In this document: positions 622 through 37,573 of the stretch, piece after piece
Layout: each line of letters starts with the position of its first letter
Numbering within the stretch: position 1 is the first letter of the stretch
NCBI RefSeq assembly: GCF_046105845.1
Contig: NZ_CP151004.1
Length of the DNA stretch: 64,000 nucleotides
Source: Escherichia coli
Lineage (GTDB): Bacteria > Pseudomonadota > Gammaproteobacteria > Enterobacterales > Enterobacteriaceae
Reading direction: 5' to 3' (one strand)
Made by a program: the position numbers and the translations under genes
Notes under the pieces: model-generated
Databases searched by the model: none
The model's input: only the letters and a program-made list of their open reading frames with translations
What the model was told of the DNA's origin: nothing

Positions 622-3600
622 ATGAGTAAACTTTTGGATCGCTTTCGCTATTTCAAACAAAAGGGCGAAACCTTTGCCGATGGTCACGGACAGGTGATGC
701 ATAGCAACCGCGACTGGGAGGACAGCTATCGCCAGCGTTGGCAATTCGACAAAATCGTGCGTTCCACCCACGGTGTTAACTGTACAGGCTCCTGTAGCTG
801 GAAAATCTACGTTAAAAATGGTCTGGTGACCTGGGAAATCCAACAGACCGACTACCCGCGCACTCGCCCTGACCTGCCCAATCATGAACCTCGCGGCTGC
901 CCGCGTGGCGCAAGTTACTCCTGGTATCTTTACAGCGCTAACCGCCTGAAATACCCGCTCATTCGCAAACGACTGATTGAACTGTGGCGCGAAGCCCTCA
1001 AACAACACAGCGATCCGGTACTGGCGTGGGCATCGATTATGAACGATCCGCAAAAGTGCCTGAGCTACAAACAAGTGCGTGGGCGCGGCGGGTTTATCCG
1101 CTCCAACTGGCAGGAACTAAACCAGCTGATTGCCGCCGCTAACGTCTGGACCATCAAAACCTACGGCCCGGATCGCGTTGCCGGTTTCTCGCCGATCCCG
1201 GCGATGTCGATGGTTTCTTACGCCGCCGGAACACGTTATCTTTCACTATTAGGTGGCACCTGTTTAAGCTTCTACGACTGGTATTGCGACCTGCCGCCCG
1301 CCTCGCCGATGACCTGGGGCGAGCAAACCGACGTGCCAGAATCTGCCGACTGGTATAACTCCAGCTACATCATCGCCTGGGGGTCTAACGTACCGCAGAC
1401 ACGTACGCCGGACGCCCACTTCTTTACCGAAGTACGCTACAAAGGCACTAAAACCATCGCCATTACCCCTGACTACTCTGAAGTGGCCAAATTGTGCGAC
1501 CAGTGGCTGGCACCAAAACAAGGCACTGATAGCGCCTTGGCGATGGCAATGGGCCATGTGATTTTAAAAGAGTTTCATCTCGATAATCCCAGCGACTACT
1601 TTATCAACTACTGCCGCCGCTACAGCGACATGCCGATGCTGGTAATGCTGGAACCTCGCGACGATGGCAGCTACGTACCCGGGCGCATGATCCGCGCGTC
1701 TGACCTGGTAGATGGACTGGGCGAAAGCAACAATCCGCAGTGGAAAACCGTGGCGGTTAATACCGCAGGTGAACTGGTGGTGCCGAACGGTTCGATTGGT
1801 TTTCGCTGGGGAGAAAAAGGCAAATGGAATCTGGAATCTATTGCCGCCGGTACGGAAACCGAATTGTCATTAACCCTGCTTGGTCAACATGACGCCGTTG
1901 CAGGCGTGGCCTTCCCCTACTTTGGCGGCATTGAAAATCCGCATTTTCGTAGCGTAAAACATGATCCTGTCCTGGTGCGTCAATTACCCGTTAAAAACCT
2001 GACATTAGCCGATGGCAGCACCTGTCCGGTGGTTAGCGTTTATGATTTGGTACTGGCGAATTATGGCCTCGATCGCGGGCTGGAAGATGAAAACAGCGCG
2101 AAAGATTACGCTGAAATCAAACCGTACACCCCAGCCTGGGGTGAGCAAATTACCGGCGTGCCGCGCCAGTATATTGAAACCATCGCCCGTGAATTTGCCG
2201 ATACCGCCCATAAAACGCATGGGCGCTCGATGATTATCCTCGGTGCTGGCGTCAACCATTGGTATCACATGGACATGAACTACCGTGGGATGATCAACAT
2301 GCTGATCTTCTGCGGTTGTGTCGGGCAAAGCGGTGGCGGCTGGGCACACTATGTCGGTCAGGAAAAACTGCGCCCGCAAACCGGCTGGTTGCCACTGGCC
2401 TTTGCGCTCGACTGGAACCGACCACCGCGCCAGATGAACAGCACCTCGTTTTTCTACAATCATTCCAGCCAATGGCGCTATGAAAAAGTCTCTGCTCAGG
2501 AGTTACTTTCACCGATCGCCGATGCCAGTAAGTACAGCGGTCATCTGATTGATTTCAACGTTCGCGCCGAACGTATGGGCTGGCTACCTTCTGCGCCGCA
2601 GCTGGGGCGTAACCCGCTCGGGATTAAAGCTGAAGCCGACAAGGCCGGATTATCCCCCACAGAATTTACCGCCCAGGCGCTGAAATCGGGCGATTTACGC
2701 ATGGCCTGCGAACAACCAGATAGCGGCAGCAATCATCCGCGTAATTTGTTTGTCTGGCGTTCTAACCTGCTTGGCTCCTCCGGCAAAGGCCACGAGTATA
2801 TGCAGAAGTATCTGCTGGGGACCGAAAGCGGGATTCAGGGCGAGGAACTCGGTGCCAGCGACGGGATCAAACCGGAAGAAGTCGAGTGGCAAACTGCGGC
2901 GATTGAAGGCAAGCTCGACCTGCTGGTGACGCTCGACTTCCGTATGTCCAGTACCTGCCTGTTCTCCGATATCGTTCTGCCCACCGCCACCTGGTACGAA
3001 AAAGACGATATGAACACCTCGGATATGCATCCGTTTATTCATCCGCTTTCTGCGGCGGTCGATCCGGCGTGGGAATCACGCAGCGACTGGGAAATCTACA
3101 AAGGTATCGCCAAAGCCTTTTCGCAAGTGTGCGTGGGCCATCTTGGCAAAGAAACCGACGTGGTATTACAACCACTGCTGCATGACTCTCCGGCAGAACT
3201 CTCACAGCCGTGTGAAGTGCTCGACTGGCGCAAAGGCGAATGCGATCTGATTCCAGGTAAAACTGCGCCCAATATTGTGGCGGTGGAACGCGACTACCCT
3301 GCTACCTATGAACGCTTTACCTCGCTCGGGCCATTGATGGACAAACTTGGCAACGGCGGTAAAGGGATTTCGTGGAATACCCAGGATGAAATCGATTTCC
3401 TCGGCAAACTCAACTACACCAAGCGTGAAGGCCCGGCACAGGGGCGTCCGCTGATTGACACCGCCATTGACGCATCAGAAGTGATTCTGGCGCTGGCACC
3501 GGAAACCAACGGTCATGTTGCAGTCAAAGCGTGGCAGGCGCTGGGCGAGATAACCGGACGCGAACATACCCATCTGGCGCTGCACAAAGAGGACGAGAAG

Positions 3601-4362
3601 ATTCGCTTTCGCGATATTCAGGCGCAGCCACGTAAAATCATCTCCAGCCCCACATGGTCTGGTCTGGAAAGCGATCACGTCTCCTACAACGCCGGATATA
3701 CCAACGTTCATGAGTTAATTCCGTGGCGCACGCTGTCGGGACGCCAGCAGCTCTATCAGGATCATCCGTGGATGCGTGCTTTTGGTGAAAGCCTGGTGGC
3801 TTATCGCCCGCCTATCGACACCCGTAGCGTCAGTGAAATGCGCCAGATACCGCCAAACGGCTTCCCGGAAAAAGCACTTAACTTCCTGACGCCGCATCAG
3901 AAATGGGGCATTCACTCAACCTACAGTGAAAACCTGCTAATGCTGACCCTCTCTCGCGGTGGACCGATTGTCTGGATCAGCGAAACCGATGCCCGTGAAC
4001 TGACCATTGTCGATAACGACTGGGTGGAAGTGTTTAACGCCAACGGCGCGCTGACTGCCCGCGCGGTGGTCAGCCAACGTGTACCGCCGGGTATGACCAT
4101 GATGTATCACGCTCAGGAACGCATTATGAATATTCCTGGTTCGGAAGTAACTGGCATGCGCGGCGGCATTCATAACTCGGTCACCCGCGTTTGTCCGAAA
4201 CCAACGCATATGATTGGCGGTTACGCGCAGCTGGCCTGGGGCTTTAATTACTACGGCACCGTCGGCTCGAACCGTGACGAATTCATCATGATCCGCAAGA
4301 TGAAGAACGTTAACTGGCTGGATGATGAAGGTCGCGATCAGGTACAGGAGGCGAAAAAATGA
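622..4362 (+). CDS. narZ: respiratory nitrate reductase 2 (NRZ) alpha subunit, molybdoenzyme
   Basis: Track ORF 499..4362; true start taken at internal ATG (MSKLLDRFRYF...) giving 1246 aa; N-terminal HGVNCTGSCSW Fe-S motif typical of NarG/NarZ; stop overlaps narY start (ATGA). Confidence 0.95.
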   Translation: MSKLLDRFRYFKQKGETFADGHGQVMHSNRDWEDSYRQRWQFDKIVRSTHGVNCTGSCSWKIYVKNGLVTWEIQQTDYPRTRPDLPNHEPRGCPRGASYSWYLYSANRLKYPLIRKRLIELWREALKQHSDPVLAWASIMNDPQKCLSYKQVRGRGGFIRSNWQELNQLIAAANVWTIKTYGPDRVAGFSPIPAMSMVSYAAGTRYLSLLGGTCLSFYDWYCDLPPASPMTWGEQTDVPESADWYNSSYIIAWGSNVPQTRTPDAHFFTEVRYKGTKTIAITPDYSEVAKLCDQWLAPKQGTDSALAMAMGHVILKEFHLDNPSDYFINYCRRYSDMPMLVMLEPRDDGSYVPGRMIRASDLVDGLGESNNPQWKTVAVNTAGELVVPNGSIGFRWGEKGKWNLESIAAGTETELSLTLLGQHDAVAGVAFPYFGGIENPHFRSVKHDPVLVRQLPVKNLTLADGSTCPVVSVYDLVLANYGLDRGLEDENSAKDYAEIKPYTPAWGEQITGVPRQYIETIAREFADTAHKTHGRSMIILGAGVNHWYHMDMNYRGMINMLIFCGCVGQSGGGWAHYVGQEKLRPQTGWLPLAFALDWNRPPRQMNSTSFFYNHSSQWRYEKVSAQELLSPIADASKYSGHLIDFNVRAERMGWLPSAPQLGRNPLGIKAEADKAGLSPTEFTAQALKSGDLRMACEQPDSGSNHPRNLFVWRSNLLGSSGKGHEYMQKYLLGTESGIQGEELGASDGIKPEEVEWQTAAIEGKLDLLVTLDFRMSSTCLFSDIVLPTATWYEKDDMNTSDMHPFIHPLSAAVDPAWESRSDWEIYKGIAKAFSQVCVGHLGKETDVVLQPLLHDSPAELSQPCEVLDWRKGECDLIPGKTAPNIVAVERDYPATYERFTSLGPLMDKLGNGGKGISWNTQDEIDFLGKLNYTKREGPAQGRPLIDTAIDASEVILALAPETNGHVAVKAWQALGEITGREHTHLALHKEDEKIRFRDIQAQPRKIISSPTWSGLESDHVSYNAGYTNVHELIPWRTLSGRQQLYQDHPWMRAFGESLVAYRPPIDTRSVSEMRQIPPNGFPEKALNFLTPHQKWGIHSTYSENLLMLTLSRGGPIVWISETDARELTIVDNDWVEVFNANGALTARAVVSQRVPPGMTMMYHAQERIMNIPGSEVTGMRGGIHNSVTRVCPKPTHMIGGYAQLAWGFNYYGTVGSNRDEFIMIRKMKNVNWLDDEGRDQVQEAKK

Positions 4363-5903
4363 AAATACGTTCGCAAGTCGGCATGGTGCTTAACCTCGAT
4401 AAATGTATCGGCTGCCATACCTGTTCGGTGACCTGTAAAAACGTCTGGACCGGACGCGAAGGCATGGAGTACGCATGGTTTAACAACGTCGAAACCAAAC
4501 CGGGCATTGGTTATCCGAAAAACTGGGAAGATCAGGAAGAGTGGCAAGGCGGCTGGGTGCGTGATGTGAATGGCAAGATCCGCCCGCGTCTGGGCAGCAA
4601 GATGGGCGTAATAACCAAAATCTTCGCCAACCCGGTGGTGCCGCAGATTGATGATTACTACGAACCTTTCACCTTCGACTACGAACATTTGCATAGCGCA
4701 CCGGAAGGCAAACATATCCCTACTGCTCGCCCGCGTTCACTGATTGACGGCAAACGGATGGACAAAGTGATCTGGGGGCCAAACTGGGAAGAACTGCTGG
4801 GCGGCGAATTTGAAAAACGCGCCCGCGACCGCAACTTCGAGGCCATGCAAAAGGAGATGTACGGGCAGTTTGAAAACACCTTCATGATGTACCTGCCGCG
4901 CTTGTGCGAACACTGCCTCAATCCCAGTTGCGTGGCGACCTGCCCAAGCGGCGCTATCTACAAACGCGAAGAAGACGGCATTGTGCTGATCGATCAGGAT
5001 AAATGCCGTGGCTGGCGTTTGTGCATTAGCGGTTGTCCGTACAAAAAAATCTACTTCAACTGGAAAAGCGGCAAGTCAGAAAAATGTATCTTCTGTTACC
5101 CACGAATTGAGTCAGGCCAACCCACCGTGTGCTCAGAAACCTGCGTGGGTCGCATCCGGTATCTGGGCGTGCTGCTTTACGACGCCGACCGCATCGAGGA
5201 AGCGGCGAGCACCGAGCGCGAAGTTGACCTCTATGAACGCCAGTGCGAAGTGTTCCTCGATCCGCACGATCCCTCAGTGATCGAAGAAGCCCTGAAACAA
5301 GGTATTCCACAAAACGTGATTGAAGCTGCCCAGCGTTCGCCAGTCTACAAAATGGCGATGGACTGGAAACTGGCGTTACCGCTGCACCCTGAATACCGCA
5401 CCCTGCCGATGGTCTGGTACGTTCCTCCGCTGTCACCGATTCAGTCTTACGCTGATGCGGGCGGTTTGCCGAAAAGCGAAGGCGTGCTCCCAGCCATCGA
5501 GAGCCTGCGTATTCCTGTGCAATATCTCGCCAATATGTTAAGTGCTGGCGATACCGGTCCGGTACTGCGGGCGCTAAAACGGATGATGGCGATGCGCCAC
5601 TATATGCGTTCACAAACCGTGGAAGGCGTTACCGATACCCGCGCCATTGACGAAGTAGGCCTGAGCGTCGCCCAGGTCGAAGAGATGTATCGCTACCTCG
5701 CCATTGCCAACTATGAAGACCGTTTTGTCATTCCAACCAGTCATCGGGAAATGGCGGGCGATGCCTTCGCAGAACGCAATGGCTGCGGTTTTACCTTTGG
5801 CGACGGTTGCCACGGCTCGGACAGCAAATTCAACCTGTTCAACAGTAGCCGTATCGATGCCATCAACATCACCGAAGTGCGCGACAAAGCGGAGGGCGAA
5901 TAA
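4359..5903 (+). CDS. narY: respiratory nitrate reductase 2 beta subunit (Fe-S)
   Basis: 514-aa ORF with four ferredoxin-type Cys clusters (CIGCHTCSVTC, CEHCLNPSCVATCP, CRGWRLCISGCPYKK, CIFCYPRIESGQPTVCSETCVGR). Confidence 0.95.
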   Translation: MKIRSQVGMVLNLDKCIGCHTCSVTCKNVWTGREGMEYAWFNNVETKPGIGYPKNWEDQEEWQGGWVRDVNGKIRPRLGSKMGVITKIFANPVVPQIDDYYEPFTFDYEHLHSAPEGKHIPTARPRSLIDGKRMDKVIWGPNWEELLGGEFEKRARDRNFEAMQKEMYGQFENTFMMYLPRLCEHCLNPSCVATCPSGAIYKREEDGIVLIDQDKCRGWRLCISGCPYKKIYFNWKSGKSEKCIFCYPRIESGQPTVCSETCVGRIRYLGVLLYDADRIEEAASTEREVDLYERQCEVFLDPHDPSVIEEALKQGIPQNVIEAAQRSPVYKMAMDWKLALPLHPEYRTLPMVWYVPPLSPIQSYADAGGLPKSEGVLPAIESLRIPVQYLANMLSAGDTGPVLRALKRMMAMRHYMRSQTVEGVTDTRAIDEVGLSVAQVEEMYRYLAIANYEDRFVIPTSHREMAGDAFAERNGCGFTFGDGCHGSDSKFNLFNSSRIDAINITEVRDKAEGE

Positions 5904-6598
5904 TGCAGATCCTCAAAGTGATCGGCCTGTTGATGGAGTATCCGGACGAGCTGTTGTGGGAATGTAAGGAGGACGCGCTGGCGTTGATCCGCCGCGACGC
6001 ACCGATGCTTACGGATTTTACCCGCAACCTGCTTAACGCGCCGCTGCTGGATAAACAGGCCGAATGGTGCGAAGTGTTTGACCGTGGACGTACCACATCG
6101 CTGCTGCTGTTCGAACATGTTCATGCCGAGTCCCGCGATCGCGGCCAGGCAATGGTGGACCTGCTGGCGGAGTATGAAAAGGTCGGCCTGCAGTTGGATT
6201 GTCGAGAACTGCCCGATTATCTGCCGCTGTATCTGGAGTACTTAAGCGTACTGCCGGACGATCAGGCGAAAGAAGGCTTGCTCAACGTTGCGCCGATCCT
6301 CGCCCTGCTTGGCGGACGCTTAAAACAACGCGAGGCTCCGTGGTATTCGTTGTTTGACGCCCTGCTGCATCTGGCGGGAAGTACACTTTCAAGTGACAGT
6401 GTCACAAAACAAGTAAACAACGAGGAGCGCGATGACACCCGCCAGGCGCTTGATGCAGTGTGGGAAGAGGAGCAGGTGAAGTTTATTGAAGATAACGCCA
6501 CGGCGTGTGACAGCTCGCCGCTTAATCAATATCAGCGACGCTTTAGCCAGGATGTCGCGCCGCAATATGTCGACATCAGTGCGGGAGGTGGGAAATGA
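5903..6598 (+). CDS. narW: nitrate reductase 2 assembly chaperone (NarJ-like delta subunit)
   Basis: 231-aa ORF; 1-nt overlap (TAATG) with narY and 4-nt overlap with narV; position in operon. Confidence 0.9.
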
Positions 6599-7275
6599 TT
6601 CAGTATCTGAACGTCTTTTTTTATGATATCTACCCGTACATTTGTGCGACAGTGTTTTTCCTCGGCAGCTGGCTGCGCTACGACTACGGGCAGTATACCT
6701 GGCGCGCCTCCTCGAGTCAGATGCTCGATAAACGCGGGATGGTGATATGGTCGAATCTGTTCCATATCGGCATTTTGGGGATTTTCTTCGGGCACCTGTT
6801 CGGCATGTTAACGCCGCACTGGATGTACGCGTGGTTTTTGCCAGTGGCAGCGAAACAACTAATGGCGATGGTGCTCGGCGGTATTTGCGGTGTGTTGACG
6901 TTGATTGGCAGCGCAGGACTGCTGTGGCGCAGGCTGACTAATCAGCGTGTGCGTGCCACTTCCACTACGCCGGATATTATCATCATGAGCATTTTGCTGA
7001 TCCAGTGTCTGCTGGGGCTAAGTACCATACCGTTTTCAGCACAGTATCCTGATGGTAGCGAAATGATGAAGCTGGTGGGTTGGGCGCAAAGCATTGTCAC
7101 TTTCCGTGGTGGATCGTCAGAGATGCTCAACGGCGTAGCGTTCGTCTTCCGCTTGCATCTGGTGTTGGGAATGACCATCTTCCTGCTCTTCCCGTTCACC
7201 AGACTGGTGCATGTGTGGAGCGCGCCGTTTGAGTACTTTACTCGTCGGTATCAGATTGTGCGTTCGCGGCGATAA
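6595..7275 (+). CDS. narV: nitrate reductase 2 gamma subunit (cytochrome b, membrane anchor)
   Basis: 226-aa polytopic membrane ORF with conserved His residues; last gene of the narZYWV operon. Confidence 0.9.
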
Positions 7276-7354: not shown

Positions 7355-8248
7355 ATGAAACCGCAGGTTTACCACGTCGATGCTTTTACCTCACAACCGT
7401 TTCGCGGCAATTCTGCCGGTGTTGTTTTCCCCGCCGATAATCTCAGTGAAGCGCAAATGCAGCTTATCGCCCGCGAATTAGGTCATTCCGAAACTGCTTT
7501 TCTGCTGCACAGCGACGACAGCGATGTGCGCATCCGCTACTTTACGCCAACAGTTGAAGTGCCGATTTGTGGTCACGCGACAGTAGCTGCGCACTATGTA
7601 CGTGCGAAGGTGTTAGGTTTAGGAAATTGCACGGTCTGGCAAACGTCACTGGCAGGAAAACATCGCGTGACTATCGAAAATCACAATGATGATTATCGTA
7701 TTTCACTGGAACAAGGTCCGCCGGGCTTTGAACCGCCGCTGGAGGATGAAGTACGCGCGGCGATTATCAACGCATTGCATCTTACTGAAGACGATATTCT
7801 GCCGGGTTTGCCGATCCAGGTCGCGACGACCGGGCATTCTAAAGTGATGATCCCGTTGAAGCCGGAAGTGGATATCGACGCTCTTTCGCCTGACCTTAAT
7901 GCGCTGACCGCTATCAGTAAACAGATTGGCTGCAATGGTTTCTTCCCGTTCCAGATCCGCCCAGGCAAAAACGAAACCGACGGTCGTATGTTCTCGCCTG
8001 CGATTGGTATTGTGGAAGATCCGGTGACTGGCAATGCCAATGGCCCGATGGGTGCATGGTTGGTACATCACAACGTATTGCCCCACGATGGCAACGTGTT
8101 GTGTGTTAAAGGCCATCAGGGGCGCGCATTGGGGCGTGACGGCGTGATTGAAGTAACGGTGACAATTCGCGATAACCAACCGGAGAAAGTCACCATTTCT
8201 GGCACAGCGGTGATTTTGTTTCATGCCGAATGGGCAATTGAATTCTGA
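7355..8248 (+). CDS. yddE: PhzF-family isomerase-like protein
   Basis: 297-aa ORF; PhzF/DAP-epimerase-like fold recognised from sequence; synteny next to narV. Confidence 0.85.
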   Translation: MKPQVYHVDAFTSQPFRGNSAGVVFPADNLSEAQMQLIARELGHSETAFLLHSDDSDVRIRYFTPTVEVPICGHATVAAHYVRAKVLGLGNCTVWQTSLAGKHRVTIENHNDDYRISLEQGPPGFEPPLEDEVRAAIINALHLTEDDILPGLPIQVATTGHSKVMIPLKPEVDIDALSPDLNALTAISKQIGCNGFFPFQIRPGKNETDGRMFSPAIGIVEDPVTGNANGPMGAWLVHHNVLPHDGNVLCVKGHQGRALGRDGVIEVTVTIRDNQPEKVTISGTAVILFHAEWAIEF

Positions 8249-8331: not shown

Positions 8332-9177
8332 TTATTTTCCCGCCTCCGGGTGCGTATCAAACGCCGCCATCACCAGCGCTAACTCATCCACGGTAAAGCC
8401 ATGTTTCGCATCATCCACCCCCAGACCAAACTGTTCCTGCATCACGGCATATAACGACGCCACATCTGGTAGATTTCGCTGTTCCACCGCGTGCCCATTT
8501 TCATAATGGGTAAAATGAAAATTGGTCAGTGTCAGCTTGCCGCCGTCCGGCAAATGGCGGCACATCAGCAAATGATGGCGAAAATGCGACTGCGGCCAGT
8601 GCGCAGACCAGAAATTGCCCATTACATAATCGCTTTGTTGCTGCTCGCAGAGATCAAAACGGTACATCGACTGCCAGTGCTGATGATGATTAAACTGCAA
8701 CACCCAATCATCACCCTCCTGTAACAACCGATACTCTCCGTGTGGCGTGATCTGCACGAGATCGGGAACTAAACGAATCGGCGCGGTTAGCGTCTGTCCA
8801 CCGAAACCGACATCAGCAATCCATTTTTCCCCTTCCAGTTCCACCAACAGCAAACGATGGGTGCGCGGCGGTAATGCTGGCGGATTTGATAACACTACGC
8901 GCCCTAACAAGCTGCGAACGTTAAACCCCAGCTCGCGTAACACCCGCTCAAACACGCCATTCTGCTCAAAACAGTAACCGCCACGACGGGCTATCACCAG
9001 TTTCTCTTCCAGCGATTGATCATCAAGCTGTATTTCCCTCGGCAGCAAAACGTCGAGGTTTTCAAATGGAATGGTGCAATTGTGTTTCAGGTGCAATGCA
9101 CGAAGCGTATCAATATTGACCGCAGCAGCTCCCGACCAGTTAATACGGGCAAAATAGTGATTCAGAATGGGCGTCAT
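8332..9177 (-). CDS. nhoA: arylamine N-acetyltransferase (N-hydroxyarylamine O-acetyltransferase)
   Basis: 281-aa ORF; NAT-family sequence (…GGYCFEQNGVF… with catalytic Cys); synteny. Confidence 0.9.
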   Translation of the reverse strand: MTPILNHYFARINWSGAAAVNIDTLRALHLKHNCTIPFENLDVLLPREIQLDDQSLEEKLVIARRGGYCFEQNGVFERVLRELGFNVRSLLGRVVLSNPPALPPRTHRLLLVELEGEKWIADVGFGGQTLTAPIRLVPDLVQITPHGEYRLLQEGDDWVLQFNHHQHWQSMYRFDLCEQQQSDYVMGNFWSAHWPQSHFRHHLLMCRHLPDGGKLTLTNFHFTHYENGHAVEQRNLPDVASLYAVMQEQFGLGVDDAKHGFTVDELALVMAAFDTHPEAGK

Positions 9178-9349
9178 CAGGCGTTTCCCTTAGTGGTTTT
9201 CTCAACTTATAACCTGGAATAGACGCCGCACCGGCTATTTTGTGCGATCGCGGACATGCATCACGTTTGCAAATCGCCAATCCCGTTAATTTCGTTACTT
9301 ATTGCGTTACGGACTACGCTTAAAAAAACCTTCTTCGCGAGGCGATACC

Positions 9350-9919
9350 ATGAGCCGATTTATCCCCGTCGAATTACACCATGCCAGCCGTCTGTTAAAT
9401 CATGGCGCAACTGTCATGATCACCAGTTTCGATGAGCAATCCCAGCGGCGTAACATTATGGCAGCAGCCTGGTCAATGCCGGTGGAGTTTGAACCGCCAC
9501 GTGTGGCGATTGTGGTAGATAAATCGACATGGACCAGGGAGTTGATTGAACGTAATGGTAAGTTTGGCATCGTTATCCCGGGTGTTGCAGCAACTAACTG
9601 GACGTGGGCGGTGGGAAGTGTGTCGGGGCGTGATGAAGATAAGTTTAATTGCTATGGTATTCCGGTTGTGAAAGGTCCGGTGCTTGGTTTGCCGCTGGTC
9701 GAGGAAAAATGTCTGGCGTGGATGGAGTGTCGCCTGCTACCTGCGACTTCTGCGCAAGAAAAATACGACACACTGTTTGGCGAGGTAGTATCAGCAGCGG
9801 CAGACGCACGGGTATTTGTCGAAGGCCGCTGGCAGTTTGATGATGATAAACTCAATACACTACATCATTTAGGTGCTGGCACGTTTGTTACCAGCGGCAA
9901 GCGTATTACCGCTGGCTAA
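9350..9919 (+). CDS. yddH: flavin reductase-like domain protein
   Basis: Track ORF 9302..9919; start placed at internal ATG (MSRFIPVELHH...) giving 189 aa; flavin-reductase-like fold. Confidence 0.8.
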   Translation: MSRFIPVELHHASRLLNHGATVMITSFDEQSQRRNIMAAAWSMPVEFEPPRVAIVVDKSTWTRELIERNGKFGIVIPGVAATNWTWAVGSVSGRDEDKFNCYGIPVVKGPVLGLPLVEEKCLAWMECRLLPATSAQEKYDTLFGEVVSAAADARVFVEGRWQFDDDKLNTLHHLGAGTFVTSGKRITAG

Positions 9920-9984
9920 AGAATCATATGCAGCGACCGGTTTTTTAAGCAATGTTTCCATATGAGTTAAAAGCACATTTTATT

Positions 9985-10140
9985 TCACGATTGTATATTC
10001 TTAGTGAAGATTAATTTATCCTCACCAACATCATAGTAATTGCGTATTATAGCTTCATTGATAAAGCCCTGTTTTGTATAAAATGCGCGGGCGGCACTAA
10101 AATCGATATGGCTGGAGGTCTCTACTAAAAGTAGTCTTGC
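9985..10140 (-). pseudogene. GNAT (RimI-like) acetyltransferase, C-terminal remnant only
   Basis: Minus-strand open frame without start codon translates to ...RLLLVETSSHIDFSAARAFYTKQGFINEAIIRNYYDVGEDKLIFTKNIQS*, matching the C-terminal acetyl-CoA-binding end of RimI-like GNATs; lies in an AT-rich tract. Confidence 0.45.
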
Positions 10141-10531
10141 GTGATTGGGACAGGTCAAGAAAAAGCAGTTTTGCAGTTTTTTATTTCAGGGCACAGTTGC
10201 GAAAATTGAATCCCTTATGGACTAATGTGAGAAAATTCCGAGGTATGACTGTTTTGATATAGTGGACAATCAAGCGTCTCGAATTAACAATGAATTTCAG
10301 GTGCCAAGCCTTACAATTTGTAGCATGACGGATATAGGACAACATTAGGAAATCGGACAGAAAATTCATCATAATAAAATGACAACTTATCTCTTTCTCT
10401 CACTTTCTGAGAAATTTCACAAAAGTATAAACTAAGCCAATATGCCTTTATATATAAAAAATACTCATGCTTATTTTTATCGGAAAAATCCAAAATTTTG
10501 TCAAGACCATCAAAAATATCTTTATCATGAT

Positions 10532-11448
10532 CTATATGTACTCTTGATGATGGATCGCTGTGGCGAACTTTTCTGCGGTTAAATCAGCAGAACTGATATA
10601 ATATCTGACCGTCATTTCTGGCTCTTTCTTTTGTTCTGCTATTATGGACCGAAAGGAGACTGCAACGCATAATTTCTTCAGTCCTTTCCATTCAAACGTG
10701 AAATCAATAAGTTCATCAGGGACATCGCAAACAATATGAAGACGGATTTCTTCTCTGCCGTGACTCTTTTCACTAATGGCGTAACTGTCATGTTCTGGAT
10801 TATTTAATTCTTTCAGTGGAAATTTTTCCTCAAAGGCTTTATTAAGCCGCCCCTGATTTCCTTTTACAGCGAATAAATAATCACCGCCCTGTTTTGTATC
10901 TTCTCTGCAATATCTTTCTGGCAACCCATCGCATCAGTTGTGATGATTTTTCCTTTAATATCCAGCATGTTAAGAAGTTCAGGGATAGCTGTAATTTCAT
11001 TGGATTTCTCATCCGTCCTGATCTGTCCGATGACCAGACTGTGCATTGTTGAGAACGCACTAATGACATGAATCGCTCCCTTGCGGCGACTCTTGTCATA
11101 AGAATGCCGGAGTGTTTTTCCATCAATTGCGATGACGTCTTTATCATCTGAAGAATGGCAGTCACGCATCCAGTTAATAAAGCACTCGTGAAATTTTGCA
11201 GGACTGATACAGGATACAACTCTGGCAATGGTATCGTGAACAGGAATACCATTATCAAAATTACCATATTGCTTCAAAAAATCGAGATGTGTTTCCCCAA
11301 AATCCTCTATATCTTCCCAGCCTTCTGCACCCGAAATAACGGCACAAATAGTCAACAGTAGAATATCCGATAATTTATGTTCCACTTTCCAGGCTTGTCT
11401 GTAATCGGGGATAATAGAAATATGTCCCATCAATTTTTTAAGTTCCAT
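10532..11448 (-). mobile_element. H-repeat-associated (ISAs1-family) transposase pseudogene, frameshifted and 3'-truncated (YdcC-like)
   Basis: Two overlapping minus-strand ORFs (10864..11448 and 10532..10924) together read [32 protein letters not shown]... and ...[27 protein letters not shown]..., characteristic of H-repeat proteins; a frameshift near 10890-10920 and loss of about the last 75 codons; surrounded by AT-rich sequence. Confidence 0.8.
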
Positions 11449-11836
11449 TTTGTTCTCCTTAATTATGTAAGGAGTATTTGATCATGTATAAGCAATAAAA
11501 ACAGCTTCAGGAAATAAGGAATATCGCAATTTTTAAACATAAAATGCGAATCGTTCAATACAAAAAAGCAGCGTTGCGTAATCTTTCCCTGATTAAATAC
11601 GCTACCGCCCTACCCTGATGACATGATCTGCACTGCACTATCATATCGACATGTTTCTCTACATGCGAAAAGATGTTTTATTTTTGGATTATATTAAATT
11701 GATATTTCATATAAAAAACGAAATTACATCAATCATATAAATAGTTGTACCAACTTTAATTACTATTCATAGCAAACAAATGGATATCCAGTTAACTACG
11801 CCAGTGATTCATTAACATTAACCTCCGGCATTATTG

Positions 11837-12454
11837 TTAAATAATTTCATTCCTTTTTAATACTTCTTGTAATTTCGGTAACTGACATACAGCATCAGCA
11901 ATCGCACTGATATTCGTAGCATTATCCTGAAACCATTCATGCCCCGGCCCCCATGTGCGCATGGTGCAGAGATAACAGTCCACCAGCGTTAGTTGCTCAC
12001 CAAAGGCATAAGGTTCAGCGGTCAATTGTGAATTCAGCCAGATATAAAGCGATTTGCGATATTCAATTACATTCCTCTTTAACTGTTCAGGCGCGTCAGG
12101 AGCCCAACGCTCAGGGTAATCGGCGAAAGTGAATGTTGGATAGACATTAGCAACCAGCCAGACCAATAGCCGTTGAAACTGCTGACGTTCGGCGCGCCCA
12201 AGCGGTGGCGCAAGGTCCGGGCGACGATCGAGAACCATCAATGCAATCGCCGCTGTCTCCGTCATAATCTCGTCATTTTCCAGCGCCAGTGTCGGAATCT
12301 GACACAACGGGTTCAGGGTTTTCAATAACTCGCGTGAAGTTCCCTCGTGGTCAAAACCACTGACATCAACGAACTGATAAGGAATATCAGCCAGTGTTAG
12401 CATCAGCTCACTGATTGTAGAGCCCCATCCGGGTACGCCATACACCTTAATCAT
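11837..12454 (-). CDS. yncG: glutathione S-transferase-like protein
   Basis: 205-aa ORF with GST N- and C-terminal domain features; synteny upstream of ansP. Confidence 0.85.
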   Translation of the reverse strand: MIKVYGVPGWGSTISELMLTLADIPYQFVDVSGFDHEGTSRELLKTLNPLCQIPTLALENDEIMTETAAIALMVLDRRPDLAPPLGRAERQQFQRLLVWLVANVYPTFTFADYPERWAPDAPEQLKRNVIEYRKSLYIWLNSQLTAEPYAFGEQLTLVDCYLCTMRTWGPGHEWFQDNATNISAIADAVCQLPKLQEVLKRNEII

Positions 12455-12720
12455 ATGTCCCTCACAATCTTTTAAAGATTAAGTGTAGGACAGTACACAG
12501 GTTAACCAGCAAAAGGATTTGTCATTTTTTCGTCAGTTGTATTATTCCCCTTCAGGATTGTAAGGGGATGTTTTGCATCGTTTATCGATAACGGGTAGGA
12601 TGCTGCGCCGATAGTTTTATACCCATAAAGAATAATGGTGATAACTATCATCGCCAGGATGAATAAACATTGTTCATGGCAACTTATATGACTTTTTCAT
12701 TAAAGCAATCAGGGAGAGCA

Positions 12721-37042: not shown

Positions 37043-37573
37043 ATCGATAATACGCGCGTATAAGTTCACATCATCATAGGCATCATTCAGGAACTCAGCC
37101 TGTTTCAGACAACCTTCAAGGATAAAACCATTGCGCAAAGCGACTTGGTTGCTTTGCGCATTGTCCACCCGACATTTGATCACGAAGCGTCTAAGTTCAC
37201 CAGACTGAGCGTAATGATGAATCAATGCCTTCAGCGCCTGAGAAATGATCCCCTGCCCCTGATGAGATTCGTCCAGCCAGTAGCCGATTTCAGCGGTTTT
37301 ATTCAGTGGTTCAATACGATTAAACGAGATAACGCCGATAAGTTCATCTTCTTTGAAAATCATGAACATTTTGGCATAGCCGCGTTGATGCAACATCACA
37401 TTACCCTGCACCGTTTTTCGCGTGTCCTCTTCACTCTGAACAAACTGCGGCCAGTTTAGCGACTGCTGTAACCAGGTTTTATTTTTACAGATTAACTGAT
37501 AAAGAGGTATGACATGACTTTCTGCAACAGCATGTAATTCAAGTGATTCACTTACTTTTATCGTTTCAGTCAT
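37034..37573 (-). CDS. rimL: ribosomal protein L7/L12 serine N-acetyltransferase (GNAT)
   Basis: Track ORF 37034..37588; start at [14 protein letters not shown]... gives 179 aa; GNAT motif ([10 protein letters not shown]). Confidence 0.85.

Follow-up and report, generated by a model that had tools for sequence, protein, structure and literature searches.

The window analysed here, a 64-kb stretch of Escherichia coli DNA, was found to carry on its minus strand the last third of a gene for a 155-aa N-acetyltransferase of the GNAT family. This feature is best regarded, with a probability of roughly 0.93, as what is left, without function, of the 3' end of a stand-alone GNAT gene that was acquired horizontally and truncated by one 466-bp deletion. 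It is part of a gene that is intact at the orthologous locus, its start codon and promoter are missing, and the missing part is absent nearby; the feature is thus an ordinary pseudogene remnant. The sequence-only reading had described an orphan C-terminal GNAT fragment without a start codon on the minus strand, and this was borne out, as 51 of 51 residues are those of the C-terminus of the intact gene found at the same locus. The features of the region, in window coordinates, are as follows.

6595-7275: narV
7355-8248: yddE
8332-9177: nhoA
9302-9919, plus strand: yddH (flavin reductase family), core flank, from Pfam Flavin_Reduct (E=4.7e-21) and RefSeq at homologous loci
9920-9966, minus strand: diverged 3' remnant of pptA, about 45 nt, core-side boundary, from alignment with K-12 pptA/yddH
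9985-10143, minus strand: 3' remnant of the gene for the 155-aa GNAT N-acetyltransferase, from tblastn, nucleotide identity and alignments
10143/10144, no strand: junction of the 466-bp deletion relative to strain 2012C-4502, from global alignment and junction sequences
10144-10310, minus strand: former intergenic DNA (once separating the GNAT promoter region from the orphan gene upstream), aligned to the 2012C-4502 locus
10311-10551, minus strand: 3' remnant (about 80 codons) of a gene for a 211-aa hypothetical protein, cut by ISAs1, from the AGR6137 annotation and translation
10552-11566, minus strand: remnant of an ISAs1-family element (H-repeat, ydcC-like), aligned to the ydcC elements of strains 1190 and K-12
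10532-11448: split ISAs1-family transposase
11837-12454, minus strand: yncG (glutathione S-transferase homologue), opposite core flank, from Pfam GST_N_2 and GST_N_3
from 12670: ansP

The open minus-strand frame extends between a TGA at about 10189-10191 and the TGA stop at 9985-9987. Its GNAT-derived part comprises only 9988-10140, that is, the 51 codons for residues 105-155 of the parent protein (ARLLLVETSSHIDFSAARAFYTKQGFINEAIIRNYYDVGEDKLIFTKNIQS). Upstream of the remnant the frame stays open for another 15 codons or so; the approximately 42 bases at 10144-10185 were originally situated over 157 bp upstream of the GNAT start and are in frame by chance. The interval 9985-10185 first ascribed to the acetyltransferase is accordingly GNAT-derived up to about 10143, while 10144-10185 is not. 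The sole start-like codon in the frame is a TTG at 10158, which mechanically gives a 57-aa ORF (9985-10158). In the six RefSeq loci examined that have the remnant, it is unannotated.

When the intact protein WP_123000022.1 was searched against the 64-kb window by tblastn, its residues 105-155 aligned with 10140-9988 with all 51 positions identical (E=3.7e-30), and the last 159 nt of the corresponding coding sequence in strain 2014C-3075 were identical in the window at 158 positions. The fragment is 64% identical to the Yokenella homologue P0037 (E=2e-22), and alone it retrieved the GNAT structure PDB 2r7h (E=4.3e-6), fragment residues 2-46 aligning with residues 129-173 of that chain. It also aligned with positions 101-129 of the 132 in the NCBIfam rimI profile TIGR01575, at a score under the cut-off (E=2.4e-4, 21.2 bits). 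A Pfam scan of the 66-aa frame and of the 51-aa core matched no GNAT model, even at E<=10 and E<=1. The intact parent, on the other hand, exceeds the gathering cut-offs of both Acetyltransf_7 (E=7.5e-12, 45.9 bits against 27) and Acetyltransf_1 (E=1.2e-11, 45.3 bits against 20.7). As the fragment is unseen by Pfam, its GNAT membership follows from its 100% identity to the parent. For the same reason the Acetyltransf_1 search, by which the sequence-only reading expected the fragment to be recognised, gave no match despite true homology.

The C-terminal motif B region (strand 5, helix 4 and strand 6) is present in the fragment. Motif A, the acetyl-CoA pyrophosphate loop (Q/R-x-x-G-x-G/A), corresponds to Q84-R-Q-G-V-G89 in the parent and is absent from the window remnant; as it lies inside the deleted DNA, the window holds a GNAT relic and no functional GNAT. 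The former description of the fragment as the acetyl-CoA-binding end is apt for the C-terminal end with motif B but not for the main pyrophosphate loop, which was deleted. The N-terminal half was sought by tblastn within the 64-kb window, where the N-terminal 104 residues of the parent returned only noise (best E=0.47). A weak tblastn match to the motif-A region of the parent was seen at 37103-37279 (E=2.1, 24% identity over 63 aa), which could be a separate, unrelated GNAT gene or noise.

The extent of the deletion was read from the alignment with strain 2012C-4502, which has an undeleted GNAT reading frame (with the nonsense change K127*) and shares its upstream DNA with the window. Missing from the window are positions 4185-4650 of that strain's locus (466 bp), comprising 103 N-terminal codons (residues 1-103/104) and 157 bp 5' of the ATG; this stretch contains motif A as well as the start codon and the probable promoter region. 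Because of the sole mismatch, at 10141, the position of the junction is ambiguous by three bases (10141-10143). The junction sequences were inspected for microhomology and repeats, and nothing convincing was detected. On the far side of the junction, 10144-10310 aligns with positions 4651-4813 of the 2012C-4502 locus at 83-93% identity and gave no match in Pfam and none in Rfam. An identical junction occurs in the alignments of strains 1190 and AGR6137. At least 80% of the remnant and its post-deletion flank is covered in 237 of the 5426 complete E. coli genomes, the remnant being 96-100% identical across them. The converse polarity, with the 466 bp as an insertion in other strains, was excluded in practice, since the extra DNA encodes the N-terminal two-thirds of the protein that is conserved in the family in other genera.

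The intact allele used for comparison, WP_123000022.1 (155 aa, 468-bp gene), is located between yddH and ISEc1 in 2014C-3075, and its locus, strand and 3' flank are as in the window. Relative to this gene the window is without codons 1-103/104 and the 157 bp upstream, and therefore contains a remnant and not a gene. The intact 155-aa sequence is on record from 58 contigs, and the gene is mostly broken in E. coli. The GNAT gene or pieces of it were found in 660 of the 5426 complete genomes (about 12%), always at the yncG-pptA locus. Two other inactivated alleles keep the 5' part. WP_001563339.1 (126 aa, K127*), at positions 4026-4493 of the 2012C-4502 locus, is the same gene at the same locus and carries the annotation of a 126-aa GNAT. 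WP_000470661.1 (71 aa), from UTI89 and other B2 strains, has W72* and a 1-nt deletion at position 290 of the coding sequence; in UTI89 this allele is located at locus positions 3026-3493, and in B2 strains it is annotated as a 71-aa 'hypothetical protein' or 'acetyltransferase'. In contrast to the K127* and W72* alleles, the window allele keeps only the 3' part and has an independent lesion. Such repeated independent inactivation fits a dispensable gene.

A second GNAT copy was observed in R32_14_1F (locus positions 4022-4486). It is intact, shares 408 of 468 nt, adjoins a 5'-truncated ISAs1 fragment, and is near genes for a large glycosyltransferase and a lysine-N-methylase. Homology of this sequence to the window begins about 18 bp past the stop codon, roughly at the start of the pptA remnant of the window, which hints at a shared module boundary.

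The GNAT remnant is followed upstream by 167 bp of former intergenic DNA, then by the 3' part of an orphan gene, and the ISAs1 remnant starts 408 bp from it. The ORF at 10864-11448 matches Pfam DDE_Tnp_1_assoc (E=1.8e-33) and DDE_Tnp_1 (E=2.8e-12); relative to intact copies, the transposase gene is 258 bp short at its 3' end, and the element has a 1-nt frameshift at 10891/10892. The outer edge of the 258-bp deletion falls within a few bases of the junction between the element and the orphan gene. The 211-aa protein encoded by the latter is intact in AGR6137 (WP_001032567.1; locus positions 3352-3987), downstream of M35-peptidase and ISAs1 genes, and the window ORF 10311-10493 is its C-terminus. 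No match to this protein was found in Pfam, NCBIfam or PADLOC; that it may be an immunity-type gene of the Rhs/T6SS locus is a guess. The upstream ORFs 10181-10372 and 10311-10493 were also considered as a frameshifted GNAT N-terminus and rejected, as 10311-10551 belongs to the unrelated orphan gene and 10144-10310 is intergenic.

From the proximity of the transposase remnant the sequence-only reading had suggested a destroyed cargo gene, wording that implies a part for the transposase; that the gene was cargo of the element is conjectural. Truncation by an ISAs1/H-repeat transposase, through insertion or through a deletion adjacent to the element, would be in keeping with a distance of only 408 bp. 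In 2014C-3075 an ISAs1 copy or fragment also lies 116 bp 5' of the GNAT ATG, and in R32_14_1F one lies beside the second copy. However, IS sequence is present at neither end of the 466-bp deletion, and the gene that the element interrupts is the 211-aa orphan, not the GNAT gene. Furthermore, 2012C-4502 has the same IS insertion site with the GNAT reading frame undeleted, whereas AGR6137 has the deletion with no IS at that site. As each event occurs without the other, the two are separable, and an IS-driven truncation is largely refuted and judged very improbable; the gene was destroyed by the 466-bp deletion, and the element lies 408 bp away in another gene.

Two further readings concern the frame itself. 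The 57-aa ORF initiated at the TTG might be expressed as a small protein that has gained a new function, given an open frame and a remnant so well conserved among the 237 genomes mentioned above. Its conservation is, however, no higher than that of the adjacent non-coding and pseudogene DNA (93-97%), no Shine-Dalgarno-like sequence precedes the TTG at 10158, and the leftover strand-helix-strand piece does not contain the fold core. The gene's own promoter region was lost with the deletion, no sigma-70-like promoter was found on the minus strand in 9850-10650, and an Rfam scan identified no family. Expression with a function of its own is therefore scarcely credible, even if read-through translation of the frame from the IS side may occur. 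The identity of the remnant protein to the intact allele means that sequence decay is unusable as evidence of neutrality. A chance match in a spurious ORF would agree with the silence of Pfam on the fragment and with the AT-rich character of the region, but it is refuted by the matches to the syntenic gene (E=3.7e-30), to another genus (E=2e-22) and to a GNAT structure (E=4.3e-6), and its likelihood is practically nil.

The yncG-pptA interval is Rhs locus 6 of E. coli, which is hypervariable (Jackson et al. 2009, PMC2935791). The literature found on the locus consists of an Rhs locus map, with nothing on this GNAT. In K-12 the locus contains rhsE, ydcD, yncI and ydcC, while other strains have an intact RHS core protein with small downstream genes, some strains have VgrG and Rhs, and UTI89 has VgrG and an M35 peptidase. 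In the window all Rhs and VgrG genes are gone, and the IS remnant and two gene tails are left. No yncH was recognisable in the window, and the segment between the IS remnant and yncG (11567-11836) is not clearly homologous to either K-12 yncH or Rhs sequence. At the core boundaries, yncG is 96.5% identical to its K-12 counterpart, and yddH, a 570-bp gene in RefSeq for which the listed ORF begins at an upstream TTG, abuts the remnant of pptA, the gene for a 4-oxalocrotonate tautomerase homologue, which is about 73% identical to K-12 over 9920-9964. The G+C content is 37.7% in the GNAT remnant, 32.5% in 10144-10552 and 39% in the IS, compared with 50-51.5% in the flanking core, and this difference points to acquired DNA. 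The decay of an island, also put forward in the sequence-only reading, thus agrees with the position at Rhs locus 6, with the G+C contrast (38% against 51%) and with the loss of Rhs and VgrG.

Over the core segment 21000-29000 every complete E. coli genome is 95-99% identical to the window; the closest match there, strain 19KM1831 (99.0%), has a full VgrG/Rhs island instead. None of the 5426 complete genomes covers at least 80% of window positions 9300-12500. An intact-pptA edge is present in 4653 of these genomes and GNAT sequence in 660, which fits the two being alternative right-hand edges of the locus that are apparently mutually exclusive.

From these data we infer a horizontal origin for the GNAT gene, which once occupied the pptA/yddH edge of Rhs/T6SS locus 6. 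A single old deletion of 466 bp took residues 1-103/104, among them the loop Q84-R-Q-G-V-G89, together with the start codon and the promoter region. The protein thereby lost its N-terminal arm and central strands along with motif A, and strand 5, helix 4 and the C-terminal strands were left over. Judged from the GNAT fold, such a relic alone would be unable to fold as a GNAT domain or to bind acetyl-CoA; it has no start site of its own and is probably silent. The insertion of ISAs1 was a separate event that cut the other orphan gene, 168-408 bp upstream, and the 258-bp and 1-nt lesions inside the element would be later and distinct from the GNAT deletion. Locus 6 of the window can be viewed as a record of stepwise decay, with pptA truncated, the GNAT gene deleted, the orphan gene cut, the IS degraded, and Rhs and VgrG gone.

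The stretch should be annotated as a pseudogene fragment (GNAT family N-acetyltransferase), and its significance goes little further. Remnants this short escape Pfam alone but are readily resolved by comparison with a syntenic intact allele. The shared junction of the 466-bp deletion could act as a marker of lineage or recombination.

The parent is a single-domain GNAT of 155 aa. Homologues with 62-77% identity occur in Salmonella enterica, Enterobacter, Enterobacillus, Phytobacter, Kluyvera, Citrobacter, Serratia, Yokenella and Aeromonas, and homologues with 45-50% identity occur in many metagenomes, with generic names only. The neighbours in Phytobacter are MarR and MFS genes and an IS3-type element; in Salmonella the gene lies in a P4-type integrase island that includes DUF3987, AlpA and CbtA/CbeA, and in Yokenella folD and a TetR gene are nearby. 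A conserved partner gene was sought in these three neighbourhoods and none was found, all contexts being different, and the gene thus travels alone. The best explanation is that the parent was a stand-alone accessory GNAT, dependent on acetyl-CoA, whose substrate is not inferable from its neighbours. It is highly unlikely that the intact enzyme served the island, for example by acetylating (detoxifying) a small-molecule or peptide product linked to the Rhs/T6SS locus. In E. coli the gene has undergone no fewer than three separate inactivations, each of them at the distal edge of an effector-immunity locus of the T6SS/Rhs kind. If such a role existed, the repeated GNAT loss would track the loss of the cognate effector, rather than simple neutral decay.

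Among known proteins, the solved structure closest to the parent by sequence is PDB 2r7h, described as a putative D-alanine N-acetyltransferase of the GNAT family, a function that is itself putative. The match spans residues 47-151 of the parent (E=3.3e-12) at moderate identity, the N-terminal 46 residues being unaligned. Type II toxin-antitoxin systems include GNAT toxins of the TacT/AtaT/ItaT type. Like the parent, these toxins are small stand-alone GNATs on mobile or variable DNA; a small co-oriented antitoxin gene was looked for beside the homologues in the E. coli, Phytobacter, Salmonella and Yokenella contexts and no recurrent partner was found, while the NCBIfam matches of the parent included no toxin family and PADLOC gave no match. 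RimI, the bS18-alanine N-acetyltransferase, gives the highest score of the named NCBIfam families with the parent as well as with the fragment, with local similarity in the strand 5/helix 4/'RNYY' region, and the parent matched the RimI chains in PDB (2cnm, 5isv, 9mto) at E values of 5e-5 to 1e-4. The earlier term 'RimI-like' is acceptable as a loose resemblance but not as an identification, as the parent reaches 45.3 of the 86.4 bits required by TIGR01575 and 27.3 of the 173 required by NF007025, far under the equivalog cut-offs, and is thus not RimI. RimI is encoded by a conserved, single-copy core gene, whereas the parent is an accessory, low-GC, island-borne gene present, whole or in pieces, in about 12% of E. 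coli genomes.
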